Shown one piece after another: positions 10,401-64,000 of a stretch of 64,000 nucleotides of DNA. This DNA is from a virus. A program made the position numbers and the translations under genes. The stretch's first letter is position 1. Every line of letters starts with the position of its first letter. The stretch lies in IMG/VR virus record IMGVR_UViG_3300031857_000057, positions 39,519 to 103,518 of that record. One strand, written 5' to 3'. Under the pieces are notes generated by a model. The model worked only from the letters and a program-made list of their open reading frames with translations. It was not told the DNA's origin and ran no database searches.

Positions 10401-10403
10401 TAT

Positions 10404-45637: not shown

Positions 45638-45666
45638 CTTTCTCCTTATATAAGTGGGTTTCCCCG

Positions 45667-45739: not shown

Positions 45740-45743
45740 TGGG

Positions 45744-45817: not shown

Positions 45818-45821
45818 TCAG

Positions 45822-45894: not shown

Positions 45895-45903
45895 ATTTAT
45901 TCA

Positions 45904-45953: not shown

Positions 45954-45959
45954 TAAATT

Positions 45960-46715: not shown

Positions 46716-46876
46716 TATTTGTTTTCATTTAGTTTATCTATAATTGCATATGCGATCATGTGGTAGTCCATTTCAATCGCAGAGTTTTCACTGTCTATTT
46801 TATGAACTATTACAGCATCTGCATATGAATGTTGCAGCGCATCAAAGATTATTTCTTTTATCTCTTTATTGTCCAT
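46688..46876 (-). CDS. Hypothetical protein
   Basis: 62 aa ORF filling the gap. Confidence 0.45.
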   Translation of the reverse strand: MDNKEIKEIIFDALQHSYADAVIVHKIDSENSAIEMDYHMIAYAIIDKLNENKYQIVKLSEA

Positions 46877-46925
46877 TGTATTTAATTCTACTACAATTTA
46901 TTTATGCCTATGATATAATGAAATT

Positions 46926-47411: not shown

Positions 47412-47979
47412 AGAAATAGCCCCTGGCATTGAGCTGTGGGAAAACTTTTTGACTGATGAAGAGCATGAATATCTTATTAATACTTGCAGATCATTGACTC
47501 AGCAAGATTGGGAAGCAACATATCATAATCAATTTCAATACAATCTAGACAGGGATGGAAAAGAACCTAACAATGAATGGAAAGATAGAATATATCAATT
47601 TCCAAAAGATCATCCAGTTATAAAATCAATAAATAAAAGAATTAACGATTTTGTAACGAAAAAGGGAGAGTATCCAGGATTACTATCTAGGGCTCAAAGA
47701 CATTACCCTGGATCATTTTTAAACGAGCACTATGATTCTGTACAAAGTAAATCTTTGTCACATGCGTTGGTGCTATATCTCAATGACGATTATTCTGGGG
47801 GAGAACTTTATTTTAAAAAATTTAACATTGAGTTTAATCCACCAGTTAAATCTTTGATAAAGTTCCCTTCAACTGAAGACTATATGCATGGAATAAACAT
47901 GGTCAATGATGGTCCAGATAGATTTGTATTGACTAGTTTTATTTGGAACAATCAACAATCAGCAAAAATTGGACGATAA
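47401..47979 (+). CDS. 2OG-Fe(II) oxygenase
   Basis: HYD...LYLNDDYSGGELYF...MHGI...RF. Confidence 0.85.
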   Translation: MKSKEIAPGIELWENFLTDEEHEYLINTCRSLTQQDWEATYHNQFQYNLDRDGKEPNNEWKDRIYQFPKDHPVIKSINKRINDFVTKKGEYPGLLSRAQRHYPGSFLNEHYDSVQSKSLSHALVLYLNDDYSGGELYFKKFNIEFNPPVKSLIKFPSTEDYMHGINMVNDGPDRFVLTSFIWNNQQSAKIGR

Positions 47980-47982
47980 ATT

Positions 47983-48939
47983 TTATTTTATTGATTCTAA
48001 AAATCCTTGTGCTACATGTGCATGATTGTGTATTCCCATATGTTGTTTATCAGAAGCAAAATGCCACAAAATCTTATAATCATCTTTTATTTTAATATTA
48101 AATTGATCTAAACATATGTAATTGCATTTATGATCTTCTTTGTTTAAATCATCAAGACTACATGAAGATCCACAATTTTTAAATTTTTTAAAAGTAAAAA
48201 AATTGTCACGGTTTATACAAAATTCATCACTTGCAAAAAAAACTTCTTCAAATATTTTATCCGTAAGATTATTCCAAGTGCTCCAGACAAATTTTATATC
48301 TAAAAGTTTACACATGGTTGTTAGAATATATAGTGCATTTACATATTGTTTAATAGCTTCATGTGGAGGAATTATATCTTCTACGACGGCAGGAAATTTT
48401 ACTACTGAATCTTTTAGGTATAGCTCTCCAGTTTCAAAATCCATAGTTTTTAATTGTGAACTTGTAATATAAGTTACATCTTTTTTAGATAAAAAATGAT
48501 CTTTTTTGTTTTTATAAAAAATTCTATCTATCGTATGGAAATATCTCAAACAGTCTGGCATAAAAGCAAAAATATATTTTGGCTTACCGACAATATTTAA
48601 ATAACTTATTGCTGATGCGGCTATCTGTTCTGCAGAACCACCACAAATACCTAGGTTTGCCACCTTCATTCCAGTTGTTTTTTCAATAATTGATGACCAA
48701 ATATATTCTTCAGGTACTCCAACACCAAATGTTTGAGAACATCCTATTGCTAAAATATCACATGGAGATCCTTCAACTATATCTTTTAAATCTCTGTATC
48801 TATAATTATTTTGATGATAATCAATTTTTAACAATATGTCTTCTTTATCAAATTTAATATAGTTATGTATAAAATTTTTATTGTATAGTCCAAATGCAAA
48901 ACCAAGATGATCAAATATATTAGTAGACAAATGGTGCAT
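47983..48939 (-). CDS. SGNH-hydrolase-like protein
   Basis: IGCSQTFG, NLGICGGS, C-terminal DKQHMGIHNH. Confidence 0.6.
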   Translation of the reverse strand: MHHLSTNIFDHLGFAFGLYNKNFIHNYIKFDKEDILLKIDYHQNNYRYRDLKDIVEGSPCDILAIGCSQTFGVGVPEEYIWSSIIEKTTGMKVANLGICGGSAEQIAASAISYLNIVGKPKYIFAFMPDCLRYFHTIDRIFYKNKKDHFLSKKDVTYITSSQLKTMDFETGELYLKDSVVKFPAVVEDIIPPHEAIKQYVNALYILTTMCKLLDIKFVWSTWNNLTDKIFEEVFFASDEFCINRDNFFTFKKFKNCGSSCSLDDLNKEDHKCNYICLDQFNIKIKDDYKILWHFASDKQHMGIHNHAHVAQGFLESIK

Positions 48940-49029
48940 GCTTTATTTTTTTCTTTCTTTTAAAAATTTTTAATATTTTATATAAATAATATTGAATTTT
49001 TAATTTCATTTTTAAATTATACCATACAG

Positions 49030-49102
49030 TACCCCTAGTTGGATTTGAACCAACGCTTGGACGATTTTAAGTCGTCTGCCTCTACCGCTGGGCTATAGGG
49101 GC
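49030..49102 (-). tRNA. tRNA-Leu(UAA), short variable loop
   Basis: GCCCCTA acceptor; GACGA-CTTAAAA-TCGTC anticodon arm; 73 nt. Confidence 0.85.
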
Positions 49103-49106
49103 TCAG

Positions 49107-49179
49107 TGTCCCCACTTGGGTTTGAACCAAGGACCCGCAGATTAAAAGTCTGCTGCTCTACCAACTGAGCTATAGGGAC
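49107..49179 (-). tRNA. tRNA-Lys(UUU)
   Basis: GTCCCTA acceptor; anticodon loop CTTTTAA. Confidence 0.93.
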
Positions 49180-49181
49180 AG

Positions 49182-49255
49182 TAGAATGCTTTGGAATTGA
49201 ACCAAACTCCAAGATGCTTATAAGACACCTTCTGACCACCAGCCAGCCGCATTCC
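49182..49255 (-). tRNA. tRNA-Ile(UAU), atypical D-arm
   Basis: GGAATGC/GCATTCT acceptor; GGTGT-CTTATAA-GCATC anticodon arm; TTTGG-TTCAATT-CCAAA T-arm. Confidence 0.7.
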
Positions 49256-49260
49256 AAACG

Positions 49261-49334
49261 TGGAACAGGTAGGACTTGAACCTACGATGACCGAATTATG
49301 AGTTCGGGGCTTTAACCAACTAAGCTACTGTTCC
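49261..49334 (-). tRNA. tRNA-CAU (elongator Met or Ile2)
   Basis: GGAACAG acceptor; CCGAA-CTCATAA-TTCGG anticodon arm. Confidence 0.88.
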
Positions 49335-50149: not shown

Positions 50150-50424
50150 TATTTCTCCAGATTTATTTTAATTACTGCTGCCTGTAAGCCATCAGCAGAT
50201 CCCATGATAAATAGTTCATCAAAACCAGGTAGTTCAAAAGATATTGAATGATTAGGCAATATCCTAAATCCATAATCTGTTGTTGTGACGCTAGCGTTGC
50301 CAACATACACATACCCCGAAGAATTTATGTTTTGTATCGTAATGTCCATACCACTATGGGTAGTATTTGGAGTCAGGCGGGTAGCCTCAGAATCACTCAG
50401 TGTATAGATAGCATGTAATGTCAT
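50149..50424 (-). CDS. Small beta-sandwich protein, possibly virion-associated
   Basis: IQNINSSGYVYVG...GFRILP; leaderless start. Confidence 0.45.
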   Translation of the reverse strand: MTLHAIYTLSDSEATRLTPNTTHSGMDITIQNINSSGYVYVGNASVTTTDYGFRILPNHSISFELPGFDELFIMGSADGLQAAVIKINLEK

Positions 50425-50436
50425 AGTAAGATTATA

Positions 50437-51463: not shown

Positions 51464-51664
51464 TCATAACTTCTTCTTTGGTTTTGGCATTCTTGCTTTA
51501 ATCATATCAATAAACATATCATAAAATTCTTCAGCATAATCATTATGCTTCATATATTCAAGAAAATAAATTAATTGTTCTCTTTCATGTGCAACAGCTT
51601 TTTGACAGCCGCTACATGGGCAAGCCCACTTACCACGCTTAGGAGTTTGATTTGGATCAGCCAC
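51464..51664 (-). CDS. Small Cys-containing hypothetical protein
   Basis: CPCSGC; leaderless GTG start. Confidence 0.5.
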   Translation of the reverse strand: MADPNQTPKRGKWACPCSGCQKAVAHEREQLIYFLEYMKHNDYAEEFYDMFIDMIKARMPKPKKKL

Positions 51665-51775
51665 GTAAACAGTATATCAAACAATGCCCAGATCGTCAAA
51701 GTTATCTATATGATCATCAATATCTCTACGCACAGGATAGATATCCTCAACTATTGACATAACACCATTATACAA

Positions 51776-51870
51776 TAAGAAGGACCGCCAAGACAGAAAG
51801 GGATCTCGGCGGTCCAAGCGCTCCCCAGAAAGGGTAAGGAGCGTAAAGAGGGGATTTTCATCAACCCTCT
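51776..51870 (-). ncRNA. Candidate small RNA with three hairpins; two loops carry anti-Shine-Dalgarno-like CCCUUUCU
   Basis: Own consensus promoter; no annotated ORF; G-U pairs form only on the minus strand; last hairpin has 12 bp followed by UUCUUAUU. Confidence 0.7.
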
Positions 51871-51876
51871 ATGTAT

Positions 51877-51906
51877 ATTATAGCAAAGTTATTTGGGCTT
51901 TGTCAA
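51877..51906 (-). promoter_or_regulatory. Consensus housekeeping-sigma promoter for the candidate sRNA
   Basis: TTGACA-18 nt-TATAAT with extended -10 TG. Confidence 0.8.
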
Positions 51907-52204
51907 GCTTTAAAGCTCGGCGCTAATAGGAAATAATAAACCACCCTACGCAACTCCGTTGCGCTATAGGTTAATATTTTTATAATGCTGCATACACAAA
52001 TACCACTTAACTCCCCTGTTATCTATCTTGGAAGTATATGATATTTGATTACAAAAAGAACAAGTCATTAGCTCACAAAGCTAACTGAGAAATGTTTTTT
52101 GCAAACATCAGCAATAACAAAATTTTCTCTATCAATTACAACATCATGATAAAGAGCGTCTTGATCACAGTAAAAGCATTTTTCCATATCTATATGATAG
52201 CATA

Positions 52205-52780
52205 TTAGATATTCCAGTTATTGGTCTGATTCTTATTCTCAAACAAATAATCTAGATTTGTGGGGGTAATGCCAAGATATTCAATAAGCCTGCTTGCATC
52301 CTGCTGCTCATAAAGCTCTTCAAATGTAATCTGAAAAATATCAAGGTTACGAATGTATGCCTTTTGAGTTGCTGCATGTGTCTTGTAAGATGAGAGAAGA
52401 TCGGCATTTTGATTAATGACCATGTTATCTACTTCGGCTGTATCTGCAGATCCTCTGTAATCATTTGCAAGATGTGCAACTAGTCTGCTATAAGCGCAAG
52501 CGTCATCATCTTCTCTTGTTAATCCTATTACTTTGTCAAACTTTGACATAAGCCAATCTACAGATTCAATTGCATTGACCTGAAGAAACATATTATCAAC
52601 AAACTTAAGGATAAGACCTCTATCTGAGTTAACCCATTCTAACTGTGCTGCCAACTGCTCTTCTGTGTTAGCATGTGGGTTAAAGGGTTCCAACATAACT
52701 TCTTCGCCTGTTTCAGATTTGAGCCAAGCAGAAAGACTTGTTGAACCTGAACGGCTTTGCGCCAAAACTAATATTCTCAT
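52205..52780 (-). CDS. Sulfotransferase-like P-loop protein
   Basis: AQSRSGSTSL (PAPS-binding-like), EPFN, ITFEEL. Confidence 0.6.
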   Translation of the reverse strand: MRILVLAQSRSGSTSLSAWLKSETGEEVMLEPFNPHANTEEQLAAQLEWVNSDRGLILKFVDNMFLQVNAIESVDWLMSKFDKVIGLTREDDDACAYSRLVAHLANDYRGSADTAEVDNMVINQNADLLSSYKTHAATQKAYIRNLDIFQITFEELYEQQDASRLIEYLGITPTNLDYLFENKNQTNNWNI

Positions 52781-52968
52781 AAAACCGCCTCTGGATGATC
52801 TAGTGGTGTTGGCGCAGTAAGAAGGCACTGGCAATCAGCACATTGAGCATCGTCTAATAGATATGATATTAATTCATAGCTGTTGGGATCAAACTGAGCG
52901 GTAATGCGGATAAGCGATGAGCCACAGCATGGACACGCAGCAGTTGGGATTCCTCTAGAATTAAACAT
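52777..52968 (-). CDS. Zinc-ribbon protein
   Basis: CPCCG...CADC; leaderless start. Confidence 0.55.
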   Translation of the reverse strand: MFNSRGIPTAACPCCGSSLIRITAQFDPNSYELISYLLDDAQCADCQCLLTAPTPLDHPEAVL

Positions 52969-53023
52969 ATCCCTATTATATAACAATTTGCTACATCCTG
53001 CAAACCTATGATAGACTATCGTA

Positions 53024-53212
53024 ATGTTTATTAGCAATTGCCCAAAGTGTCGCACAAAGCTCGTACCTATTTTGTATGGTAAGTTAGATTATATTCATCT
53101 TGATCTACACGAGCAAGGTCGTGCATTTTTGGGGGGTATGAATAAGAAACCTTATAACTCCTATTGTCCCCTATGTGAAGAATCCTATAAGGAAGAAACT
53201 AATCTACCCTAA
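53024..53212 (+). CDS. Zinc-ribbon protein
   Basis: CPKC...VPILYG...CPLC; leaderless start. Confidence 0.55.
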   Translation: MFISNCPKCRTKLVPILYGKLDYIHLDLHEQGRAFLGGMNKKPYNSYCPLCEESYKEETNLP

Positions 53213-53344
53213 TATGGTCTTGGCAAACAGGATAAATCTTATATCCATCTGATTCTACGGTTATTGATGGTTTTGAACATACTTGACATTTTTCAAACAA
53301 CTGTTTATTATCTTTACGAATTTTTGCGAGGTATTCGTAATAAG

Positions 53345-53557
53345 CTACATTCTCTTCCATTGCCCTATACGTCCTAGATTCACACGTTGTAATAACATAC
53401 TAGCAAAAGATGGATGTTTTTCCTTATTGCCCAAGAAAACCTTGCCATTTTCTAGGTCTGTTATTTCCCATTTCTCTGGTACTTTTGTCCATATGATAAG
53501 GGCTATGGGCTCGTCTAATTCTTCAACTTCCCTGCCATCTTTGAGTTTTCTCTTCAT
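53345..53557 (-). CDS. Hypothetical protein
   Basis: TKVPEKW..TDLE.G; -10 element 7 nt before ATG. Confidence 0.5.
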   Translation of the reverse strand: MKRKLKDGREVEELDEPIALIIWTKVPEKWEITDLENGKVFLGNKEKHPSFASMLLQRVNLGRIGQWKRM

Positions 53558-53590
53558 CAAAACCATTATACAGCATTGTAAATGATGGAG

Positions 53591-53622
53591 TTTTCCACAA
53601 GTTATGCACAGGTTTATCCACA
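53591..53622 (+). promoter_or_regulatory. Three tandem DnaA-box-like 9-mers
   Basis: TTTTCCACA, TTATGCACA, TTATCCACA. Confidence 0.65.
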
Positions 53623-53658
53623 GATAAATGTTACTGATATTTTTATGATGTATTATTT

Positions 53659-53684
53659 GTGGAGGAAAGTGGAGAGAAGTGGAG
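53659..53684 (+). promoter_or_regulatory. MraZ-type binding repeat
   Basis: GTGGAG x3 with 4-nt spacers. Confidence 0.55.
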
Positions 53685-53792
53685 AATGAAGCATCTTAGA
53701 CAGGCGGCTTCGTAATGTCCAAACCTTATACCACAAACATCCTATATTGTCAAACCTTTATATCCCCAAATATGCCATATAAAACCATATAA

Positions 53793-53868
53793 AAATGTTT
53801 GAAAACATATGAGAAATATAACAAAATGTTATAAAACAATATAGAAATGTTTGAAAATGTTTGAAAAC
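53793..53868. repeat. AT-rich direct repeats
   Basis: AAATGTTTGAAAA three times (two overlapping) plus a variant. Confidence 0.6.
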
Positions 53869-54064
53869 TTTCAGGGATTTTTTAGAGGTCGTTCGTAATG
53901 TCTTTTATACTAGAAGGGCCAGAGGATCTTCTTAATCCCCCGCCAAATTCGGCCAAATAATCTTTCTGCCTTTTGTTCAAACCTATATTCCTTGCTTTGT
54001 TTATACTCGTGTGATTGGAAGTATGGATTGTTTTGAGATTGGAAGAAATAGTTTCTAGGTGACA

Positions 54065-54337
54065 TTATTTTTCCCCCGCTTTTTCGGCGGTAGCTAACAT
54101 ATGATCAAGATTATTAAACCCTGTATCCTCTATACCCAATGTAGCCAATAGCATAGCAAAGGTTTCTTGGACATATATGAGAGCTATTTCTGTTGGTTGA
54201 CATAATCCCTCTGCCGTCAAAAATGCGAGGGGTAGTCCAATATCATTAAACTCTATAAATTCCCTAGTATTAGAATCATCCTTATAATTAAGATAGAAGC
54301 TAGCTAGGATATCAAATTGTTTGTCAATATCGGTCAT
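54065..54337 (-). CDS. Hypothetical protein
   Basis: FIEFNDIGLPLA motif; -10 element 7 nt before ATG. Confidence 0.55.
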   Translation of the reverse strand: MTDIDKQFDILASFYLNYKDDSNTREFIEFNDIGLPLAFLTAEGLCQPTEIALIYVQETFAMLLATLGIEDTGFNNLDHMLATAEKAGEK

Positions 54338-54516
54338 ACATAAAAGTATATCACTGTTTGACAAATATTAAAAAGTTTGATAAACTTCTGGGATTTTTTT
54401 ATGATCGTTCGTAATAACATTTTGGGAAATTTTTCTTAATGTCGTAAATGTCCGATTTGTATGGTTTGACCTCGGGGGCTTTCACGGCACCCCTGCGGGG
54501 GCACCGTGATTTATAA

Positions 54517-54750
54517 CTAGAACAAACGCTCTTGCTGATAATACTTATTGCGTTCGTTATACTCAGCAACTTCTTTGTTGTATTGGCTAGCCTCCAAAAC
54601 TTCTACTGCTCTCACATAAATAGTATGCGGTAATGCGTGAGCAATATATTTTCCTACCTGCTCTAAATCTAAATGAAAGTCAGATAGTAGTTTGCCAATA
54701 CTTTTTGCTACCCTCTCTTCTTGGCTTGTTGGTAGTCGTAGTCGTCTCAT
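54517..54750 (-). CDS. Hypothetical protein
   Basis: GGAGG RBS before ATG 54750. Confidence 0.55.
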   Translation of the reverse strand: MRRLRLPTSQEERVAKSIGKLLSDFHLDLEQVGKYIAHALPHTIYVRAVEVLEASQYNKEVAEYNERNKYYQQERLF

Positions 54751-54774
54751 AGCCCTCCAGTCTATCAAATAAGT

Positions 54775-54815
54775 GAGGGGAGCGCAAGCGAAAGGATGAC
54801 CTGCGCTCTACCCTC
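54775..54815 (-). other. Intergenic hairpin with UCCUUUCG loop
   Basis: GAGGG(TA)GAGCGCAGG-TCATCCTTTCG-CTTGCGCTCCCCTC. Confidence 0.6.
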
Positions 54816-54834
54816 GTGCCTAGGGTCACCACTC

Positions 54835-55203
54835 CTAGGCTTTCGTTAGAAACCTTTCCTTTGCTAGATGATATGTAATAAACTCATCTATTGAATGCGT
54901 TCCAGTATCATCTTCAACAGTCTTATTTACTAAATCAATGATAACTGGGTGGTCCATGAAACCTAAATCATTAGGATTGCATGCATAGATTCCATATCCC
55001 GTCGCTGACATTAGTTCATCTTGAAGAAAGTAACTGATTGCCATACGTGTCCCATATGCTACATCTGGCATATCAATACGTGGCTTAGCATGTTGCAATG
55101 CCCCAGCCAAATCAACATACATGGAGTCTTCGCCCCAATGACTATAAAGCGCTACAGCCTGCTCCTCTGACTGTTTGAATACAAATGTACAACGTGCTCC
55201 CAT
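54835..55203 (-). CDS. Hypothetical early-type protein
   Basis: MGAR...LYSHWG motif. Confidence 0.6.
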   Translation of the reverse strand: MGARCTFVFKQSEEQAVALYSHWGEDSMYVDLAGALQHAKPRIDMPDVAYGTRMAISYFLQDELMSATGYGIYACNPNDLGFMDHPVIIDLVNKTVEDDTGTHSIDEFITYHLAKERFLTKA

Positions 55204-55343
55204 GGTTATTCTTCCTCTCTGTTAGTTTGTTTCATGTTATCAAAATCCAGCGGTAGTGTCAACTGCTCCCACATTATTCTTCCCCCTCAATCCCGCATTT
55301 GGGACAGTATGAATCATATACATGATCACAATAGTCATCCATT

Positions 55344-55640
55344 CTATGCCCTTTCCCCTGGAGTTCTAAAAGCCTTGGGAGATTCTTCACCTATAGCAAA
55401 AGAGAGCCCATATGCAAGCGTATAGAGGGCCTGGATAGCGTCACACTGTCCTTCCCAATACCTTCGCTCCATGGAGTCCATTGCTTCTCCAGAACGCTCC
55501 TCTTCTTCCTGTGCTAGGATTAGTTCTTCCTCCGCCTCCACAAGCATGCGGTTCATCTCACCATGGAGAATATGCAAACCAGACAAACCTGCGTCCACAG
55601 CCTTTTGAACATGGTCATCTAACTCTGTTGCGATAATCAT
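55344..55640 (-). CDS. Hypothetical protein
   Basis: AMDSMERRYWEG motif. Confidence 0.5.
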   Translation of the reverse strand: MIIATELDDHVQKAVDAGLSGLHILHGEMNRMLVEAEEELILAQEEEERSGEAMDSMERRYWEGQCDAIQALYTLAYGLSFAIGEESPKAFRTPGERA

Positions 55641-56081
55641 GATTCCCTTCCATTGTATTTGATATCACTATATACTGCTAGCAAATGTGCAGCGGTAGAC
55701 CAAGCAGCCTCCAGTTGCCTATAAGGAACAATATCCTCAGACTCTAACTTCTGCATGTCTTGTTCCAAACTAAGCATATGTAGTTTGACATATTCCATGT
55801 ATTGGTCAGACATTATAATCCTCTAATGGGATTACTTCATCGTTGATGAGTTGTGAGCCTGTTGATACAACAATCTCGCCGTCAATCTCGCCAAAGATAG
55901 CATTAGGGAATATAGGTAGCACCTGCGCTACCATTTCATCAAAGGTCATCTTCATCCTCCTGTGGCTCTGTTGTTAGTTCTCCGTCATTGGTTTCATACC
56001 ACCCTGTGTAGAAGATTATCTGTCCGTCATTATCATACTCATAGTCATACTTAGCCATGAGTTTCTTTAGTTCTGCTTTGG

Positions 56082-56813
56082 TCACTTTAGTTTCTCCAAT
56101 CTATAGTCAGGTACAAACTCAGGAGTCAAGAATACCTTATGAGTGTCGCATTCCGCAACTGCCTCTAGGTCTACCTCACCCATATAGTGGCATTTATTGC
56201 AAATATTCTCGCCACAGTCATCACAATACTCTAAACAATCATACTCATCACAGTCTCTACAGCGTGATTCATAAGACATATCAGATGTGACTTCACCTGC
56301 CACAAACTCTATCTCCCCACCAAACCCCTGCTCTTCTTCCCAAGTTAGAGTTAGTACAGCAGTTGGATACTGATTAGATAGATGTAACATAGCCTGTACA
56401 GGCGGAGCCCAAGCGGTATCAAATCTATACCCCACCCAGTTATCCACACCGTCTGCTTTGAAGTCAGTCATACAGGTATCACTATCGCCACCTTCATCTG
56501 GCACAGCAACATCCCACTTAGTACCCCATTCACGGTTATTGAAGGAATACCAATCATTACCTGAATAAGGGGTGGGGGAAGAATAATCAGTCTGCTTCTC
56601 ATAAGCCTCTATATCAGTAGGAGCCTTGATATTCCAGAATGAAAATATAGGATTATTATATTTTACAGTCTTAGGTTCAAACTGTTGTGTTTGTACATTC
56701 CAGTTATGCTGGTATGTCCTCTCAAATGGACGATTGAGTTGGTCCTTGATGAGATGAACAGTTTCAGGGTTTGAATCCTGAATCATTAGATTATTGAATA
56801 CCCAGTTTGGCAT
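56082..56813 (-). CDS. DUF1281/YubB-like ferredoxin-fold protein with Cys-rich tail
   Basis: MPNWVFN, WYSFNNREWGTKWD, FDTAWAPP. Confidence 0.65.
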   Translation of the reverse strand: MPNWVFNNLMIQDSNPETVHLIKDQLNRPFERTYQHNWNVQTQQFEPKTVKYNNPIFSFWNIKAPTDIEAYEKQTDYSSPTPYSGNDWYSFNNREWGTKWDVAVPDEGGDSDTCMTDFKADGVDNWVGYRFDTAWAPPVQAMLHLSNQYPTAVLTLTWEEEQGFGGEIEFVAGEVTSDMSYESRCRDCDEYDCLEYCDDCGENICNKCHYMGEVDLEAVAECDTHKVFLTPEFVPDYRLEKLK

Positions 56814-57157
56814 TAGTTATCTTCTCCAATAATGTTCCAGACAACATCTACATTGTCTGCCATATAAGGCAGGGTATTGTCTAAGAGACTAGACACAGAG
56901 GCATTTACATCCTCGTCATCAGTAGAGTAGCAAATAGTGACTATTACATCCATGTTATATCCTTTCTGTTTGATATTCCAAGTATCGCATATTTGGTGGT
57001 ATTTGGCAAGGTATAGGAGTGTGACTTACCCCACATTAGATATGTCCACACCCACAGTTACAGCAGGTATTACATTTACCCTCGTAAGTATTACACATTA
57101 GATCTATAAGGTCTTCTTCAAGACAGTTATAACAAATAAACTCATCAAGCTGTAGCA

Positions 57158-57313
57158 TTAGATATGCCCCTCTGCTAACAAACCTTCTAATAGGTCCTTG
57201 GCTCTAAAAGTATTATTATATAACCATGGGTCATCATCTGAGTTGATAGTCGTAAGCACAGAATCAAGAGCATCAATCATATCTCTTACATCTGTTTCTA
57301 TATATCCTAGCAT
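57158..57313 (-). CDS. Small hypothetical protein
   Basis: ACAGAAAGGGA RBS before ATG 57313. Confidence 0.55.
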   Translation of the reverse strand: MLGYIETDVRDMIDALDSVLTTINSDDDPWLYNNTFRAKDLLEGLLAEGHI

Positions 57314-57417
57314 TATTTCCCTTTCTGTGAGATATTTTATTATCCCATATTTGGGGGAAAAAAGCAAGGTCAACGTAATAAAGATTTGGGAAAAATCTAA
57401 TCTAGTACGTAATGAGC

Positions 57418-57433
57418 TGTGACAAAAATCACA
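57418..57433. promoter_or_regulatory. CRP/GlxR-type site
   Basis: TGTGA-CAAAAA-TCACA. Confidence 0.7.
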
Positions 57434-57463
57434 CGACTCGGGGCCCCATGATCGCATGAAAAA

Positions 57464-57492
57464 GTGAGCAGTTTATACTCTTGCTCAGGAGT
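57464..57492 (-). ncRNA. 3'-UTR H-type pseudoknot, copy 1
   Basis: ACTC-C-TGAGCA-A-GAGT-ATAAAC-TGCTCA. Confidence 0.75.
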
Positions 57493-57502
57493 TGCGATTT
57501 AC

Positions 57503-58519
57503 TTATGCAATCGCTAGCACATTCTGCACTGTTTGCAATATGCGATTCTTTTCTGCAGTGATAGAAGCATCAAAACCAGAAGCAGCAGCAAGGACGGATT
57601 CATTACTACCACCACGAGCAGAACGATGCCAATCTAATCTTTCGGTTAGAGCATTCATTGCACCCCATGCGGTGTTAGCAATCATCCCGTTATATTCACC
57701 TGTGTAAATATCATTGATGAGGTCAATCTTATTTTGCCACTTAGTGAGAGCGATTTTCTTCTCATCTTCTGGCTTAGGATAAATCGCAAGCACAATGTCG
57801 TTGAACTGTTGCGCTGTGATTTCTTTCTCAATCATGGTCTTAGCCATGAGATCAAAAGCATCCATGTATTTATTAGCAAGACCAAGAGTCTCACGAGCAA
57901 TCTGCACACGACCATTAGCAGATTGTGTGTGACGAATCTTGAATGATTGCTTGATTGCATTCTTGCCACGCTTACTACCCAATGCAAGATTGAGAGTGTT
58001 AGCGCATACAACACGCACTGGCGTGATAGATGCTTGAATAGCAATAGAGCCATCATGTGATGTGTTGATGAGAAGATAAGTCTTGACCTTATCCGAAACA
58101 CCGCTAGGGTCTAGCACTGTCTCACGCTCAAGAGCAAGAGAGCCAAATACTACACGACCACCCTTGATTGAGCCAGCGGTCTCCCATCTACCGCCACCAT
58201 CTAGAATGTTATCGCCAAATGCGAATAGGTCTTCATTCTGCAATGGAACATATCGCTCACCTACAACACCCAAAACATCTGTCTGGTTATTGTTAGTAGG
58301 ATTAGTTCTTACAACATATTGATAAGACTTATCTGATGTAAGGGTGTTAGGAATCTCAACATCTACAAGACGAACATTCCAGTTATTTAGGTTAGCAGCA
58401 GCCAACATTTCTGCGGTGTTCTTTTCTTCTGTAAATACTGTTCCTAAACCATGCCATGCAGGTTCACGGAAAGATGCAAAAGATGCAACACCGTTTTGAG
58501 TTTCTAGTTCATGAGCCAT
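57503..58519 (-). CDS. DUF932-family phage/plasmid protein
   Basis: PAWHGLG, LGVVGERY.PLQN, ETAGSI.GG, NTSHDGS, TPVRVVCANTL, IRHT. Confidence 0.85.
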   Translation of the reverse strand: MAHELETQNGVASFASFREPAWHGLGTVFTEEKNTAEMLAAANLNNWNVRLVDVEIPNTLTSDKSYQYVVRTNPTNNNQTDVLGVVGERYVPLQNEDLFAFGDNILDGGGRWETAGSIKGGRVVFGSLALERETVLDPSGVSDKVKTYLLINTSHDGSIAIQASITPVRVVCANTLNLALGSKRGKNAIKQSFKIRHTQSANGRVQIARETLGLANKYMDAFDLMAKTMIEKEITAQQFNDIVLAIYPKPEDEKKIALTKWQNKIDLINDIYTGEYNGMIANTAWGAMNALTERLDWHRSARGGSNESVLAAASGFDASITAEKNRILQTVQNVLAIA

Positions 58520-58547
58520 TTTATTACCTTTCTGTTAGTTATAGCAA

Positions 58548-58575
58548 TCTTAGCACACAAAATCTGGGAATACAA
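58548..58575 (-). promoter_or_regulatory. Leftward housekeeping-type promoter, representative of the early cassettes
   Basis: TTGTAT-17 nt-TAAGAT with TG extension; similar elements near 56981, 57340, 59424, 60210, 60499, 61374. Confidence 0.65.
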
Positions 58576-58675
58576 ATCGTAAATCGTAAATCGGACATAT
58601 AGGACAAATCGCCCCCGAGTTAATTAGCGGGGGCCCCAGGACACCACCACAGATCCCAGGGCCCAAGATTATTTG

Positions 58676-59134
58676 TTACTCCCATTCCTCCATATCTATG
58701 TCATCAACATAGTGAGAGTTGATAACGGTATCGCCATGGTAAATGTCTACCGTCAAATCATCATTCAAGAAATAACGCAAATCAAATGAATCAACTTCAT
58801 TCAGCGGTACCTCAGTGCTGCCTTCAACTTTGATTGTTGCAACCCAGTTGAGAGTTGTTTTTGCTTCATAGCCAATAATCTCGCAAAGTTGACTAAGAAC
58901 GTCTTCTTTTGAGGTATCAGAGTTATACCAGCCATCTGCAGTTAGATTGTCTTGAATCTGTGCTAACTTTTTTTCAGCGGCTGCTAGGAATGACTCAGTA
59001 AACTGCTTCTTACGAAACATCTCATTGATGTCATGCTTAGTAAGCATATGGTGCACAATCTCTCCAGTAGGTTTTTGCTCCAAGCCCTCCACGAGATAGT
59101 TGACGTACAGTGTTGTTAGTTGTGTGTCTTGCAT
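58676..59134 (-). CDS. Hypothetical protein
   Basis: 152 aa; GAAAGGA RBS. Confidence 0.55.
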   Translation of the reverse strand: MQDTQLTTLYVNYLVEGLEQKPTGEIVHHMLTKHDINEMFRKKQFTESFLAAAEKKLAQIQDNLTADGWYNSDTSKEDVLSQLCEIIGYEAKTTLNWVATIKVEGSTEVPLNEVDSFDLRYFLNDDLTVDIYHGDTVINSHYVDDIDMEEWE

Positions 59135-59397
59135 TATTCCATTTCCTTTCCAAGTTCATCAAACTCTCTAACCTCATCAAGCATAGCGTCAAACTGTTCC
59201 TCAGTCAATAATACTGATGTAACAAGATGTGCTGTTAGTGCTGTTAGATGTGTTGAGTAAACAAACATTTCTCTCATCATTTCTTCTTCAGAAAGAATAT
59301 TCTTATTCTCTAATATGTATTTGACTGCGCTTACTACATCTGGTGAATGTAATGCTTCCTTGCTTGCTTCTGCTATTGCTAACGCTGTTGCGCTCAT
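59134..59397 (-). CDS. Hypothetical protein
   Basis: ACAGAAAGGA RBS before ATG 59397. Confidence 0.55.
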   Translation of the reverse strand: MSATALAIAEASKEALHSPDVVSAVKYILENKNILSEEEMMREMFVYSTHLTALTAHLVTSVLLTEEQFDAMLDEVREFDELGKEME

Positions 59398-59472
59398 TGG
59401 TGGTTTCCTTTCTGTATATACCAAGTTTAGCACTAATCTGGGAAAAATACAACTTATCCCGTAAAGCCCCCG

Positions 59473-59488
59473 TGTGAGAAGGATCACA
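59473..59488. promoter_or_regulatory. CRP/GlxR-type site
   Basis: TGTGA-GAAGGA-TCACA. Confidence 0.7.
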
Positions 59489-59515
59489 AGAGCTCGGGCC
59501 CCATTTGGCGGGGAA

Positions 59516-59544
59516 GTGAGCAGTTTATAGTCATGCTCAGGACT
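59516..59544 (-). ncRNA. 3'-UTR H-type pseudoknot, copy 2
   Basis: AGTC-C-TGAGCA-T-GACT-ATAAAC-TGCTCA. Confidence 0.75.
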
Positions 59545-59551
59545 TTTAGTT

Positions 59552-59719
59552 TTAGTAAGTTTTTACCATAGCGAAACGCTTTGCGCCGTTGCTAAGTGTT
59601 AGACCTACACGAGTTACATTTCTACGGATAGGTGTGAAAGAGTTGATTCTTCCAGTTACTCCCACTTTGCTAGTAGTGAAGAGATCTCCTACCTGATATG
59701 TGTATCCTCCTAGAGTCAT
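59552..59719 (-). CDS. Small beta-barrel-like protein (not in the ORF track)
   Basis: 55 aa, MTLGGYTYQVGDLFTTSKSGVTGRI...; ACAGAAAGGA RBS; paralog of 60289-60459. Confidence 0.65.
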   Translation of the reverse strand: MTLGGYTYQVGDLFTTSKVGVTGRINSFTPIRRNVTRVGLTLSNGAKRFAMVKTY

Positions 59720-59749
59720 TTGCTTTTCCTTTCTGTTAGGTGTTTTGTT

Positions 59750-59783
59750 GTGGGCAGTTTTACCTTAGGTGATACCCAGCACC
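59750..59783 (-). ncRNA. 3'-UTR H-type pseudoknot, copy 3
   Basis: GGTG-C-TGGGTA-T-CACC-TAAGGTAAAAC-TGCCCA. Confidence 0.7.
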
Positions 59784-59792
59784 AAATCTCGT

Positions 59793-60179
59793 TTAGAGAT
59801 AACGAGCGATAGCGTTATATGTAGATGTGGAAACTGTTTCCTCATCCGTCATTTTGAGAATACGAATAGCGTTCTCAAGTTCCTCTACCATCTCGTTATA
59901 TGAGTGGCGGTGGATTTGCTCATGCTCACGCTCAGGTTGCTCTGGAAAATCAAGCCCATTGAGGTCTAAGTCAAAATCAACATTGAGATTATTATTCCAA
60001 GCACGATAACTTGTGCGAAGATTTTTAGCCTTAGCGATTTGTGATACGGCTAACTTAGCAACTTCCTTTTCCCACTTTTCAGTAGCCTTCTTATACTTAG
60101 CCTCGTTCTCATCTTGCTTAGCATAGTCAGCCTTGATTTGTGCCAACTTAGTTTCTAAGGCTTTGATAACCTTAGCCAT
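59793..60179 (-). CDS. Helical hypothetical protein
   Basis: 128 aa; ACAGAAAGGGA RBS. Confidence 0.6.
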   Translation of the reverse strand: MAKVIKALETKLAQIKADYAKQDENEAKYKKATEKWEKEVAKLAVSQIAKAKNLRTSYRAWNNNLNVDFDLDLNGLDFPEQPEREHEQIHRHSYNEMVEELENAIRILKMTDEETVSTSTYNAIARYL

Positions 60180-60240
60180 TTGTTTTTCCCTTTCTGTTTG
60201 GTGGTATAAATCTTAGCATTTTGCCAAGATAAAATCAAGT

Positions 60241-60271
60241 TGAGCAGTTTATCCTCCACTTGCTCAGGTGG
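60241..60271 (-). ncRNA. 3'-UTR H-type pseudoknot, copy 4
   Basis: CCAC-C-TGAGCA-A-GTGG-AGGATAAAC-TGCTCA. Confidence 0.75.
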
Positions 60272-60288
60272 CGTTAGCGTTTGCTAAA

Positions 60289-60459
60289 CTAGTTAGACTT
60301 GTTCTTCCAAGTAGTCCAACGAACCTTACCCTCAACATCCAACTTCACACGAACTGTGTTCTTGTCTGTTGGGATGATTTCCTTGATGATACCTGTGACC
60401 TTGCTCTTTTGAGAGGTGTAGGTATCGCCTACCTTGTAGGTTGCTACTGATACTGCCAT
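60289..60459 (-). CDS. Small beta-barrel-like protein
   Basis: TYKVGDTYTSQKSKVTGII; AAGGAG RBS. Confidence 0.6.
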   Translation of the reverse strand: MAVSVATYKVGDTYTSQKSKVTGIIKEIIPTDKNTVRVKLDVEGKVRWTTWKNKSN

Positions 60460-60636
60460 TTTTCTTTCTCCTTTGTTTGTTGTTGTTGCCATAGTATTAT
60501 TATCGCATTATTCATTTGTGTCCGTCAAGTTATTTCTGATATTTCTCATATTTTGAGATTATTCACTTGTTGTCCCCCAAGCCCAATAGCATGAGGAATA
60601 TTAGACCTAGGATTACTACTTCTAGCATAGCCCCCC

Positions 60637-61350
60637 TTATTTCTTCTTTGCGCTAAACACTATATCAGATTTTTGGTAAACGCACAAGCCACACGATACG
60701 CAAGCAGATCCCTTTTCTGATATGAGAGGAATAGCTTTCTTATTCTCAGGACACTTAGCCCCTACCCTGCCAATCATCTCTTTCATGTCTGCCTGCCCTA
60801 TTGCGAAAGTGTCAGCAAGGTATGCCAATCTTATTTCTTTGCTAGCGAGGGTAACGGCAATGTCTTTGTTATCTTGATCTGTTGAGAAGTATAAGGATAA
60901 GTTATCAATACCCTTGAGGATATTAGCTGCAGAAGCTACACGTGTATATACCCAAAATTGAATGTCAGGCTGTTCTTCAATAACTAAACGCCATGCACGT
61001 GCATATTCATCACTAAAGAAGTCACCGTCCCAATGAATGCGGAATAACATTTTAGCATTACGCTTTACACAATCTTTCTTGAATTCTGCAATCATATCTG
61101 AAAGTAGAGAATACATGCCTTGAATATCTTCATCTTTCAATAGATTCCAGTTATGCATTAGAACATCCCTAACGCCTTTGTAGATTTTTTCTAGCTTACC
61201 CGCATAACATACTTTGGCGCATGTAGGTGTCTGTCCAGGACATGAATATTCTTTTCCTGCGGGTAGACCGAAAGTGTTAGCAATAGTAGGTGTCTTGCCA
61301 TTAGGTGAAACGGCATTAGTAACTTTTCTGTCCATAGATCTTTTTAGCAT
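60637..61350 (-). CDS. GP88-like Fe-S / radical-SAM-like protein
   Basis: SCPGQTPTCAKVCYA, FRIHWDGDFF, WVYTR, C-terminal CPE...CVSCGLC. Confidence 0.7.
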   Translation of the reverse strand: MLKRSMDRKVTNAVSPNGKTPTIANTFGLPAGKEYSCPGQTPTCAKVCYAGKLEKIYKGVRDVLMHNWNLLKDEDIQGMYSLLSDMIAEFKKDCVKRNAKMLFRIHWDGDFFSDEYARAWRLVIEEQPDIQFWVYTRVASAANILKGIDNLSLYFSTDQDNKDIAVTLASKEIRLAYLADTFAIGQADMKEMIGRVGAKCPENKKAIPLISEKGSACVSCGLCVYQKSDIVFSAKKK

Positions 61351-61476
61351 GGTGTCCCTTTCTGAATAAACCAAGCTTAGCAGATTCGGGAAAAAATATC
61401 AACTTGCCGTAAATAGGTGTTTCTACGTAAAGGGGGCAAAACGGACAAAACGGCTCGGGGCCCCTTTGGGGAGCTT

Positions 61477-61704
61477 TTACTCTACATATACATAGAGTTC
61501 AACTTGCTCATCATCAAAGAAGAATGTTTCAATAACTTCTTCATATTCATCAAGCATAGCGACATTACACCCTTCATCGCCTTCATTGATACTCTTGATA
61601 GTGAAGAATTCACCTTCAACCTTGATTAGATCGCCCTCCATCAATTGATTAGGATAGAGGAGATCTGCAAAGCGTGTTTCCATGTCGTTTATTGTAGCAG
61701 TCAT
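61477..61704 (-). CDS. Small acidic hypothetical protein
   Basis: GAGG RBS; coupled to the upstream gene. Confidence 0.5.
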   Translation of the reverse strand: MTATINDMETRFADLLYPNQLMEGDLIKVEGEFFTIKSINEGDEGCNVAMLDEYEEVIETFFFDDEQVELYVYVE

Positions 61705-61910
61705 TTTATAACTACCTCGCCATTCGCATAGAAAGTCTTAGTGAACATTTTACCTGTTGGGTCTGTTAGATTATATCTAGCATATACCTTCGCATTTCCA
61801 TAGTCCTTACACTTAGCCCAAGCATCATGAGCCTCCATGAAGTCATGAAGTCTAAGTGTTGATACAAGTTCATCGTCATACCAAGTTGTTAGTGCGTATG
61901 CGTATTCCAT
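61701..61910 (-). CDS. Hypothetical protein
   Basis: GAGG RBS; in operon. Confidence 0.5.
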   Translation of the reverse strand: MEYAYALTTWYDDELVSTLRLHDFMEAHDAWAKCKDYGNAKVYARYNLTDPTGKMFTKTFYANGEVVIK

Positions 61911-62210
61911 TTAGATTTCCTCTCTCTCAATAATCCAAGCCTCTAGGCGGTGGTTCTCAATAATAGCATGAGCAGGGGCAGTATTCTGGTATTTGTAGAA
62001 CACGCCTTCTGGTAGTGGAATCTCCAAGTTCCAAAGCCCTGCGTCATTGACGGCATCAATAGCCTCAATACATGGCTGAATCATGATAGTGGGGACGGGA
62101 GGGTATAGATTAGAAGTCAGGTGAATCCTCATCTGTGTTTCCATATCTAGCATGATACCCAAGTCAGAAAGTGTCCCATCTGCCATTTCATTTGCTAAGT
62201 TGCTTCCCAT
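61911..62210 (-). CDS. Hypothetical protein
   Basis: HLTSNLYPPVP...HRLEAW; GAGG RBS. Confidence 0.55.
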   Translation of the reverse strand: MGSNLANEMADGTLSDLGIMLDMETQMRIHLTSNLYPPVPTIMIQPCIEAIDAVNDAGLWNLEIPLPEGVFYKYQNTAPAHAIIENHRLEAWIIEREEI

Positions 62211-62222
62211 TTTATTTCCTCT

Positions 62223-62411
62223 CTATCGTGCTTCTGGTGTTGTGAATAGTTGTCCTGCGGTAACAGGCTCTAACAATGAATCAAGCAAGTATAACTCATG
62301 CTCCTCATATTTCTCAAATCCTGCCTCGCATGAGCAATACTCAATAGCATACTCATCATCAAACAGGTAGAACACCTCTCCTGAATCTGAACAGATAATA
62401 CAGTTGGTCAT
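62223..62411 (-). CDS. Small zinc-binding protein
   Basis: CIIC...CSC; GAAAGGA RBS. Confidence 0.5.
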   Translation of the reverse strand: MTNCIICSDSGEVFYLFDDEYAIEYCSCEAGFEKYEEHELYLLDSLLEPVTAGQLFTTPEAR

Positions 62412-62528
62412 AGTTTTCCTTTCGTCCAATAAGACAAACCTATCACAGCCCTACGACAATATCAAAACGACACGCCGAATTTTGGGAAAAGTTTCGGGAA
62501 AGCCGTAAAGTGTAACGTAAATCACAGC

Positions 62529-62549
62529 TGTGGATAAACCTGTGGAAAA
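62529..62549 (-). promoter_or_regulatory. Two DnaA-box-like 9-mers
   Basis: TGTGGATAA and TGTGGAAAA on the + strand. Confidence 0.6.
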
Positions 62550-62704
62550 CGCCTCGGGCGCAGTCGGGCGTGTCTAATCCCAGTTAGTTTGTTTTCCTAC
62601 ATTTTTCTTTTCAATTTTTTCGGCGGTATGGATCGCTAACAACTCTGTCAAACTATAAGCAAGAATGAAAAGAGTTGCTAGCGTCGCTATTTGGCTAATC
62701 CACA

Positions 62705-62896
62705 TTATGCGTCAATGAGTCCTAACTCATCTACACCACAACGCTTTTCAAACTTTGCTTTATCAAAGTTTTCATTATCGCCATGAAAGTATTCTGCGAA
62801 CATGTCTACAATATCCTCAAACACTTGCGGATGAATCTCCTGCGAGAATGATTTTAGAATGTCTGCGGTTTTTATGTAGTCTTTTCTAGTCATCAC
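62705..62896 (-). CDS. Small hypothetical protein
   Basis: MTRKDY...DNENFD..KF. Confidence 0.55.
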   Translation of the reverse strand: MMTRKDYIKTADILKSFSQEIHPQVFEDIVDMFAEYFHGDNENFDKAKFEKRCGVDELGLIDA

Positions 62897-63096
62897 TACT
62901 TTACCACCCTAAGAATAGCCCATGAGCCGTTTTCGTTGATTTCGTCTAGTGTTGGTTGGAGTCTAGGAACTACCAAGTCGTGAAGCATAGAAACTAGAAT
63001 GTGATTTATTTGCTCTTCTGAATAGCGTGAGATTATAGTCTCCGCATATTCTCCGATAAACTCAGTTTCAAACTCTAGTGAGTGTCTGATTTTCAT
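62896..63096 (-). CDS. Small hypothetical protein
   Basis: AGAAAAGGA RBS. Confidence 0.5.
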   Translation of the reverse strand: MKIRHSLEFETEFIGEYAETIISRYSEEQINHILVSMLHDLVVPRLQPTLDEINENGSWAILRVVK

Positions 63097-63208
63097 TTGC
63101 TGTCCTTTTCTGTTGGGTTATTTATTGTAGCGGTTAGGGCTGTCAGGGCTTGCGCCATAGATTCTTTTCGTTGTGCCGTTACATATTGGCGGAATTCATC
63201 AAGATTCA

Positions 63209-63376
63209 TTAGTCTGCCTCTATTTCTGTAACTTTGATTAGGTTGATTCCCAAAGCGGGATTCTGTAGAGAGTTTCCAATGTGAATCATTAGATTCTCAT
63301 AGTTTTCTTCATGTGATAGAAACTCGTCAAAGTCTGCCTCAATGTGAAACTCTGCGGTTAGTGTATAAGTAGGCAT
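63209..63376 (-). CDS. Small hypothetical protein
   Basis: AGAAAGGG RBS before MPTYTL. Confidence 0.5.
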   Translation of the reverse strand: MPTYTLTAEFHIEADFDEFLSHEENYENLMIHIGNSLQNPALGINLIKVTEIEAD

Positions 63377-63444
63377 TTTAGCCCCTTTCTTTAGGTTATG
63401 TAGCAAGTCTAGCGGATTTAGTTATTTATAGCAAGCCTAAGCCC

Positions 63445-63460
63445 TGTGAGGTTTATCACA
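63445..63460. promoter_or_regulatory. CRP/GlxR-type site
   Basis: TGTGA-GGTTTA-TCACA. Confidence 0.65.
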
Positions 63461-63696
63461 AGGGCACTTAGGATTAGTCTTAGCAAAGTGGCGAATAAGC
63501 ACCCTTCGCTCAAAGTTAGTTAGTCCAAATACTGAACGGATACCCCCGTCATTATATTCGTGGATAAGTATGTCTAGCCTTTTTTCAGTGAGCATTTTTT
63601 GCCCCTTTCTTTTCTGTTACTCTGTAAGTATCTCACACACTCAGAAAAATATCAAATCCAAAATGCGATCAAAACGGACATTTTGAAAAAAAGTTT

Positions 63697-63712
63697 TGTG
63701 AGAAAACTCACA
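63697..63712. promoter_or_regulatory. CRP/GlxR-type site
   Basis: TGTGA-GAAAAC-TCACA. Confidence 0.7.
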
Positions 63713-63800
63713 TCGTACGTAAACCGACAAAACGGACATTTCGCCCTCGGGCGCTTTCGGCGCATTGTCAAATCAACACGCCGATTTTTTTATTTATTTT

Positions 63801-63989
63801 TTATGGATATTTTCTTTCATCTTCTGTGATTAGGAAATCAAGGTAATCAAGAAATCCTTGCTCATAGGCTATTGGATCAACTGCTTTCAGAACATCAGAC
63901 GGGGAATAAAGAAGATTCCCAATCACTATCTGCTCATTCGTTTCATCTAACATCTGGTCATACAGCGGAAGAAGTAAATCTTCATTCAT
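63801..63989 (-). CDS. Small acidic hypothetical protein
   Basis: GAGG RBS; YDQMLDE...LKAVDPIAY. Confidence 0.55.
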   Translation of the reverse strand: MNEDLLLPLYDQMLDETNEQIVIGNLLYSPSDVLKAVDPIAYEQGFLDYLDFLITEDERKYP

Positions 63990-64000
63990 CGCTTTACCTC

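Follow-up and report, generated by a model that had tools for sequence, protein, structure and literature searches.

The last 12 kb of a 64,000-nucleotide (nt) stretch of viral DNA, the window analysed here, carries an early-gene array which we read as a modular actinobacteriophage early region of the host-takeover type known from Bacillus phage SPO1, equipped with boxes for host factors, with a portable pseudoknot behind stop codons and, in one sub-lineage, with a small RNA (sRNA) complementary to the Shine-Dalgarno (SD) sequence of the early genes. We put the probability of this reading at about 0.55. The window is the final 64 kb (positions 39,519 to 103,518) of the 103.5-kb IMG/VR viral contig IMGVR_UViG_3300031857_000057, a record classed as linear with a completeness rating of 95%. 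All coordinates are window positions, and the array is the stretch from 51.7 to 64 kb, which ends at the contig end. The relatives used for comparison were about 80 loci and several complete genomes, of which only a part have the sRNA.

Nine minus-strand units built on one common plan were found, and the array as a whole would comprise about ten short units with one to four small genes each. A unit opens with a TTGnnn -35 box and a -10 box of the form TAnnnT, GATAAT or GATACT, separated by a 17-nt spacer that mostly ends in TGn; the early SD follows 9-15 nt after the -10 box, and the ATG 7-11 nt after the SD.

63593..63655, minus strand: unit 1, -35 box, -10 box, early-type SD and ATG (sequence pattern)
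63374..63434, minus strand: unit 2, promoter, SD and ATG (sequence pattern)
62409..62465, minus strand: unit 3, promoter, shorter SD and ATG, with a DnaA box upstream at 62529-62537
61348..61402, minus strand: unit 4, promoter, early SD and ATG of a GP88-family gene
60177..60238, minus strand: unit 5, promoter directly behind a pseudoknot, early SD and ATG
59717..59735, minus strand: early SD and ATG without a promoter of their own, behind a weak pseudoknot
59395..59452, minus strand: unit 6, promoter, early SD and ATG
58517..58575, minus strand: unit 7, promoter, early SD and ATG of a DUF932 gene
57311..57367, minus strand: unit 8, promoter, early SD and ATG
56951..57009, minus strand: unit 9, promoter, early SD and ATG

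The array is thus organised as many short operons, each with its own predicted host-sigma promoter, and 185 distinct promoters of this type, taken from 34 close relatives, gave a clear consensus for the -35 box, the spacer and the extended -10 box. The SD octamer CAGAAAGG occurred 10 times in the window against 2.0 expected, a number reached by 0 of 100 shuffled sequences. Seven copies lie on the minus strand between 56961 and 61364, each 7-11 nt ahead of the start codon (ATG) of a unit's first gene, and two are found as reverse complements within the candidate sRNA (51794 and 51826). In a rough whole-genome gene call, this uniform and strong SD was confined to the first genes of the array; it appears to be a private variant, because the other genes use GGAGG, AAGGAG or GAGGTGA. 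Given the 3' ends of actinobacterial 16S ribosomal RNA (rRNA), the early SD would pair with the final seven bases of the 16S rRNA and not with the usual CCUCC core. The repeated leftward units with a housekeeping promoter and an AGAAAGG-type ribosome-binding site, which a previous reading of this DNA from its sequence alone (the sequence-only reading) had proposed, were therefore recovered in the nine units and in the excess of the octamer.

The same reading had placed an opposing bipartite motif between the units and had given opposing promoters a part in shutting the array off. The motif, TTACG-N14-16-TCCC, is present as described, but it does not oppose the units: its T-rich/CCC word falls within the spacer of the leftward promoter in the 185-promoter consensus, and its TTACG word immediately precedes the -35 box in one orthologous promoter group. 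Read on the other strand, the motif has no essential -11 A or -7 T. Promoter-like sites on that strand numbered 48, compared to 47.9 in shuffled sequences, so that opposing promoters were rejected and a shut-off by them has no statistical support.

We found also that the intergenic modules hold boxes of host-factor type, as had been claimed. The window contains four perfect CRP-type boxes (TGTGA-N6-TCACA), where 0.08 would be expected; three of them are in intergenic modules, and the distances of the window boxes to -10 boxes are 51.5, 72.5 and about 81.5 bp.

57418..57433, no strand: perfect CRP/FNR-type box
59473..59488, no strand: perfect CRP/FNR-type box, centre 51.5 bp from the -10 box of unit 6
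63697..63712, no strand: perfect CRP/FNR-type box, centre 72.5 bp from the -10 box of unit 1
62529-62537: DnaA box upstream of unit 3
53614-53622: DnaA box in a non-coding hub
53560..53900, no strand: non-coding hub of 340 bp with DnaA boxes, three CTCCAC repeats and AT-rich repeats

The relatives (1.43 Mb) contained 341 perfect CRP-type boxes, distributed over 75 of 81 loci, and the runner-up among inverted repeats of the 5-N6-5 form reached 53. Zero covariation was seen between the arms among relatives, which points to a DNA site and not to an RNA hairpin. The boxes lie upstream of the -35 box, and the distances from their centres to the next predicted extended -10 box showed peaks at 42, 50-53, 62-63 and 73 bp, a spacing that would put them on one helix face, as at class I CRP promoters. 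The perfect 5-N6-5 consensus, the position upstream of -35 and the steps of about 10.5 bp are shared with class I CRP promoters and the GlxR/Crp regulons of Actinobacteria (reviewed in PMC5449483); the difference is that the boxes belong here to early promoters of a lytic-type phage and are very dense, about 4 per 20 kb. A Crp-family gene was looked for in the phage and none was found, and a phage-encoded Crp was dropped as the binder of the boxes for this reason. DnaA-type boxes numbered 420 in the relatives against about 22 expected, an enrichment of about 19-fold. Host global regulators of the Crp and DnaA type thus probably tune early transcription, and the claim that host state sets early expression stands in so far as a host-factor input is plausible from the helical phasing, the enrichment of DnaA boxes and the phage Crp that was not found. 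The hub at 53560-53900, whose CTCCAC repeats have a period of about 10 nt, is a candidate replication origin or regulatory hub, and it is partly conserved in the related loci L011, L023 and L025, with the pyrimidine repeat kept. The modules also share the word CCCGAG, of which seven of the eight genomic copies are intergenic (including 54471, 57437, 59493, 61454, 62553 and 63746). The modules of each related phage have a GC-rich palindromic word of their own that resembles a restriction site: L011, L024, L014 and L019 use CCCGGG, CCTAGG, CACGTG-like or TCGA-type words instead.

The third element is a compact H-type pseudoknot of 34 nt, which stands behind four consecutive cistrons. Its stem 1 has 4 bp with an invariant closing C-G pair, its 8-nt loop begins with CUGAGCA, and its 3' part consists of an A-rich linker ending in AAAC and of UGCUC, which pairs back to the loop.

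60239..60275, minus strand: post-stop H-type pseudoknot, copy 1 (model, 38.2 bits)
59515..59548, minus strand: post-stop H-type pseudoknot, copy 2 (model, 49.9 bits)
57463..57496, minus strand: post-stop H-type pseudoknot, copy 3, behind DUF932 (model, 44.8 bits)
59749..59773, minus strand: divergent weak pseudoknot with compensated stem 2 changes (12.6 bits, E = 0.057; also seen by eye)

Three strong copies and a weak one behind stop codons confirm that units can end in a pseudoknot, and the word "often" of the sequence-only reading amounts to 4 of about 10 units. In the relatives, 171 distinct copies were collected, all of them on the gene strand, and the position of copy 3 behind DUF932 was kept in many of them. 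Stem 1 was paired in 149 of 149 aligned copies, with all four Watson-Crick types at one position, and in stem 2 of the same copies double changes from AU to GC were seen three times, beside 29 G-U wobbles; as a control, sliding the pairing partners abolished the pairing. The stop codon usually precedes stem 1 by 5-20 nt, with a peak at 5-9 nt, a new SD often follows 20-60 nt past the pseudoknot, and a U run stands behind roughly a fifth of the copies. For comparison, a recoding pseudoknot (-1 frameshift or stop read-through) would stand at a constant, short distance past its recoding site and go with an extended reading frame. The same motif, with an equal 5-nt gap and a paired stem 1, was found in at least 120 other viral contigs; its range takes in unrelated phages as well as contigs of bacteria and archaea from many phyla, including mobile DNA. 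This distribution marks it as a portable module that is independent of the other parts of the array. The pseudoknot matches no Rfam family: only transfer RNAs (tRNAs) exceeded the gathering threshold, and up to E = 5 there was zero relevant match in 51600-64000. A riboswitch or ribozyme, considered for the preQ1-I-like or pistol-like shape, was rejected on the grounds that no model matched, that the copies are many and post-stop, and that conserved downstream helices are lacking. As to its role, our guess is an RNA roadblock, an end protector or a leaky terminator. Outside the phage relatives, the pseudoknot was seen directly behind ArdA antirestriction genes in Calothrix and Omnitrophica contigs (L210:2717-3244 and L247:7277-7822). 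In at least six bacterial contigs (L208, L255, L265, L270, L293 and L309) a tiny conserved open reading frame ends at the UGA of the pseudoknot, and these frames share a Cys-x-x-Gly-Cys tail.

The candidate sRNA gene lies next to the array and is predicted to be transcribed in the same leftward direction.

51877..51906, minus strand: sRNA promoter with perfect -35 box, 18-nt spacer and perfect -10 box (12/12 consensus positions, TG before the -10 box)
51775..51871, minus strand: candidate sRNA of about 95 nt with three hairpins (fold z = -7.1)
51782-51815, minus strand: terminator-like hairpin 3, 13 bp with a U-rich tail
51826-51834 and 51794-51802, minus strand: anti-SD nonamers in the loops of hairpins 2 and 3

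CCCUUUCUG, the complement of the early SD, is exposed in these two loops. The candidate has its own promoter and a terminator-like end, and zero coding potential, the covariation of its stems not preserving codons. A plain blastn search recovered two relatives only, and homologues were gathered through the loop motif; about 70 of the 107 exact hits to the double motif in viral contigs were chance matches without hairpins. The homologues come from about 30 viral contigs with about 25 distinct stems and an invariant loop. RNAalifold gave compensatory changes in 9 of 14 base pairs with invariant loops, that is, a conserved single-stranded seed within a covarying structure, and the relatives carry an equivalent promoter. 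In most relatives a copy of the pseudoknot forms the end of the sRNA, and behind it comes either a U run or a third anti-SD motif. At L023:14700-14960, L011:15030-15290 and L025:8930-9190 the place of the sRNA is taken by a different sRNA-like gene, which has a TGCTATAAT promoter, a length of about 110 nt and a pseudoknot end, and which shows no anti-SD loops.

In silico, loop-target duplexes of -12 kcal/mol or below were obtained for 14 of 29 early starts and for 10 of 142 others (Fisher p = 5e-7). The adjacent RNA complementary to the shared ribosome-binding site is thereby upheld, by its 12/12 promoter, its fold (z = -7.1), its covarying stems and its selective match to early starts.

Part of these observations could be explained in another way. 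The shared features may serve mainly the stability of the mRNAs and form no switch: the SD at the 5' end would park a 30S subunit and block RNase J, a 5'-3' exonuclease, and the pseudoknots would block exonucleases or ribosomes where cistrons end. We regard this as possible, although it is not the explanation that we prefer. The short distance between -10 box and SD (just 9-15 nt) fits it, and SD-like stabilisers close to the 5' end are known from Bacillus phage SP82. The pseudoknot, moreover, resembles the Xrn1-resistant coremin motif (xrRNA_C) of eukaryotic RNA viruses, which has a Watson-Crick variant and can stall exonuclease and ribosomes (PMC10520033, PMC10321173): both have a 4-bp hairpin and an A-rich linker containing UAAAC, and in both the loop pairs with sequence after the linker. 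However, the 8-nt loop has another consensus here, stem 2 has 5-6 bp compared to 3, the host is a bacterium and has no Xrn1, and the second hairpin that coremin needs downstream is not general (the next 30 nt fold with a mean of -2.5 kcal/mol, compared to -2.2 for shuffled sequences). Membership in coremin/xrRNA_C was rejected, the loop being neither YGAD nor YGNNAD, the spacer ending in the stem-2 arm and not in CUAC, and the second hairpin missing. Stabilisation also leaves the conserved sRNA and the CRP and DnaA boxes unexplained. It is compatible with the takeover array proposed here and does not exclude it.

A second alternative concerns the sRNA, which may not regulate the early genes and might instead target host mRNAs, act as a 16S-tail decoy for a protein or nuclease, or be the structured 5' leader of the leaderless-type genes that lie immediately downstream. 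The loops presumably copy the 3' tail of the 16S rRNA, judged from actinobacterial ends. In several relatives the sRNA has no clear terminator and runs into the -10 box and ATG of the next gene, and the early SD persists where the sRNA is absent. We consider this alternative unlikely. The copy in the window ends in the 13-bp hairpin with its U-rich tail, and the loops fit the early SDs better than the rRNA tail, with predicted duplex energies of -13 to -18 kcal/mol compared to -9 to -12 kcal/mol; the loops have three C where the 16S tail has two before the next U, which gives the better match to early SDs ending in GGG. The bases around the SD core also point to targets in the phage. The base before the core was C in 46% of cases with the sRNA and in 28% without (p = 0.011), the base after it was G in 17% and 5%, respectively (p = 0.005), both values being uncorrected for phylogeny, and both bases lengthen the pairing with the sRNA.

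The distribution among relatives bears on how the parts belong together. Of the loci with enough sequence, 25 are rich in the early SD and 32 are poor in it; the sRNA was present in 17 of the former and in 0 of the latter. Co-occurrence, which the sequence-only reading had put forward as a check, therefore holds in one direction, the sRNA being found only where the early SD is rich, and fails in the other, since it is missing from eight such loci; these eight indicate that the early SD does not need the sRNA. In our reading, the sRNA is nested in the SD-rich clade and evolved on top of a pre-existing SD class. It probably regulates this class, though the array would work without it. A test by independent pairs, made on the DUF932 tree to compare the sRNA with SD richness, was powerless, SD richness being constant where the sRNA varies. 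Every part listed by the sequence-only reading is present, and at a frequency above chance. From their distribution the parts appear to be separable modules, a toolkit rather than an obligate circuit, and their linkage into one integrated circuit is partly supported. Inheritance of the parts as one unit was not borne out, with a pseudoknot portable across phyla and an sRNA missing from complete SD-rich relatives. A single co-evolved circuit, with early expression governed by the state of the host, the fate of the mRNAs by pseudoknots, and the shut-off of the array by the anti-SD RNA and opposing promoters, is very improbable. All the named parts do stand side by side in the array, the sRNA is confined to SD-rich relatives and itself ends in a pseudoknot copy in relatives, but the scattered occurrence of the pseudoknot outside these phages, the complete SD-rich relatives without the sRNA, and an "opposing" motif that is the spacer of the leftward promoter, with promoter-like sites not in excess, count against it, and the independent distribution of the parts weakens it.

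Several points weigh against the modular takeover reading itself. Among the eight SD-rich loci without the sRNA are one complete genome of 120 kb, which has terminal repeats, and another genome that is 92% complete, and the different sRNA-like gene takes its position at three loci, one of them too short for the tally. On the DUF932 tree the state of the sRNA changes about five times and the SD-rich state about four times, so the association may reflect descent, the co-occurrence being inseparable from it. The duplex-energy comparison is partly circular, as the sRNA was noticed through its complementarity. The starts and ends of the transcripts are predictions only, the CRP-type boxes could bind an unrecognised phage protein, and the host, and with it the 16S 3' tail, is judged indirectly, from gene content and kinship.

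As to the host, several features of the genome point to an actinobacterium. A WhiB-family gene at 32719-32892 (plus strand) scored 40.5 bits compared to a curated cut-off of 23.6, GP88-family and DUF932 genes are present, and the best matches in cultured phages were those of the DUF932 protein and of the DnaE-type polymerase, with 50-53% identity to Streptomyces phages of the Stanwilliamsviridae. The arrangement TATAAT, 5-7 nt, ATG was found 21 times in the window against 8.2 expected, and -10 boxes so close to the ATG suggest leaderless mRNAs.

50422-50436, 51758-51772, 52966-52980 and 53555-53570, minus strand: leaderless-type -10 boxes 5-7 nt before ATG
45948, 46739 and 46914, plus strand: leaderless-type -10 boxes 5-7 nt before ATG

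The host is probably of freshwater type, because the G+C content is 30-41% and the relatives come from lake metagenomes. The 12-kb early stretch had zero megablast matches in cultured phages, and most of the early products match no family or only domains of unknown function (DUFs). The phage, of about 104 kb, appears to be a distant relative of the Stanwilliamsviridae phages of Streptomyces. It also carries eight tRNA genes (Thr, Glu, Asp, Asn, Leu, Lys, Ile and Met) in two clusters at 44470-49334 on the minus strand, and two Nol-like carbamoyltransferase genes at 27941-29584 and 42043-43461.

The closest known organisation is that of SPO1. Its operons have each their own host-sigma promoter and a very similar strong SD. 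The SPO1 host-takeover module sits in the terminal redundancy of the genome (PMC10531801). The present array likewise has many small early genes in short operons, each with its own promoter and a similar SD, and a position at the genome end; it differs in the host phylum and in the proteins, and it has in addition CRP and DnaA boxes, post-stop pseudoknots and the anti-SD sRNA. In the Streptomyces relatives a DUF932 homologue is found at two places per record, both of them terminal copies, and here the array lies at the end of a linear contig. With one of these phages, NootNoot (Stanwilliamsviridae), the present phage shares DUF932 and DnaE-type polymerase proteins of about 51-53% identity, a leftward row of small genes, and intergenic modules with a hairpin (terminator), CGGACA-type operator words and an extended -10 promoter. 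NootNoot differs in having GGAG-type SDs behind small 5' hairpins, and no copy of the pseudoknot was found in its 11-kb early region. Nearly all modules of that region (L433, record 1-11424) consist of a GC hairpin, a TGTCCGG-type inverted repeat, extra CGGACA words and a TGnTAGACT promoter. The TGTCCGG-type half-site word recurs near promoters of the window and is a candidate conserved operator; TGTCCG overall is not enriched in the window (8 against 7.1 expected), though it clusters near promoters.

For the sRNA, counterparts exist in several systems. Regulatory RNAs with C-rich loops, such as RNAIII of S. aureus, the UCCC-motif sRNAs and the actinobacterial 6C sRNA, occlude SDs, and the c4 RNA of phages P1 and P7 blocks a phage ribosome-binding site in trans. 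As in these, several hairpins of the present sRNA show the same pyrimidine-rich seed complementary to ribosome-binding sites. Unlike them, it has no Rfam match, its seed would copy the extreme 3' tail of the 16S rRNA, and its predicted targets are a class of the phage's own early mRNAs and not one gene. In T4, RegB is a protein endoribonuclease that cuts GGAG in the SDs of early mRNAs. The proposed inactivation of early mRNAs through their SD sequence, with later mRNAs spared, resembles this case, the difference being that RNA pairing is proposed here in place of a protein nuclease.

The sequences show the presence, conservation and covariation of the parts and a selective complementarity; that the parts are expressed, that Crp and DnaA bind, that the sRNA represses and what the pseudoknot does are inferred. 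Taken as a working model, the takeover array would be transcribed by host RNA polymerase as about ten short leftward units. Each would open with a promoter for the housekeeping sigma factor, the predicted transcript starting 2-8 nt ahead of the purine-rich SD, and this SD would pair with the last seven bases of the 16S rRNA. The portable post-stop pseudoknot, a GC palindrome or both would mark the unit boundaries, while CRP/FNR-type boxes in helical register or DnaA boxes upstream of the promoters may allow host regulators to tune transcription. The sRNA, expressed from the consensus promoter just downstream and showing two anti-SD copies (three in relatives), would most likely pair with early mRNAs over 8-11 bp and make them less stable or less well translated, leaving untouched the leaderless mRNAs and the late mRNAs that have GGAGG-type sites. 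The fullest form of this model, which we offer only tentatively, makes a multi-loop phage sRNA that copies the 16S 3' tail a class-wide off switch, silencing early mRNAs with the private SD and sparing leaderless and GGAGG-led late ones, with promoters wired to host Crp and DnaA and an uncatalogued portable pseudoknot punctuating the cistrons.

To our knowledge, temporal control in actinobacterial phages is poorly known, and for those of the abundant freshwater lineages we know of nothing. The dense, phased CRP-type boxes may tie early phage transcription to the nutritional state of the host. The 34-nt pseudoknot moves among phages and mobile elements from many phyla and must therefore work with something universal. 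Relatives with and without the sRNA constitute a natural experiment for the hypotheses on the sRNA, the CRP boxes and the pseudoknot. The early genes of the phage itself may, as a class, be the target of the sRNA; if this is true, such a class-wide anti-SD sRNA would be an RNA counterpart of T4 RegB.

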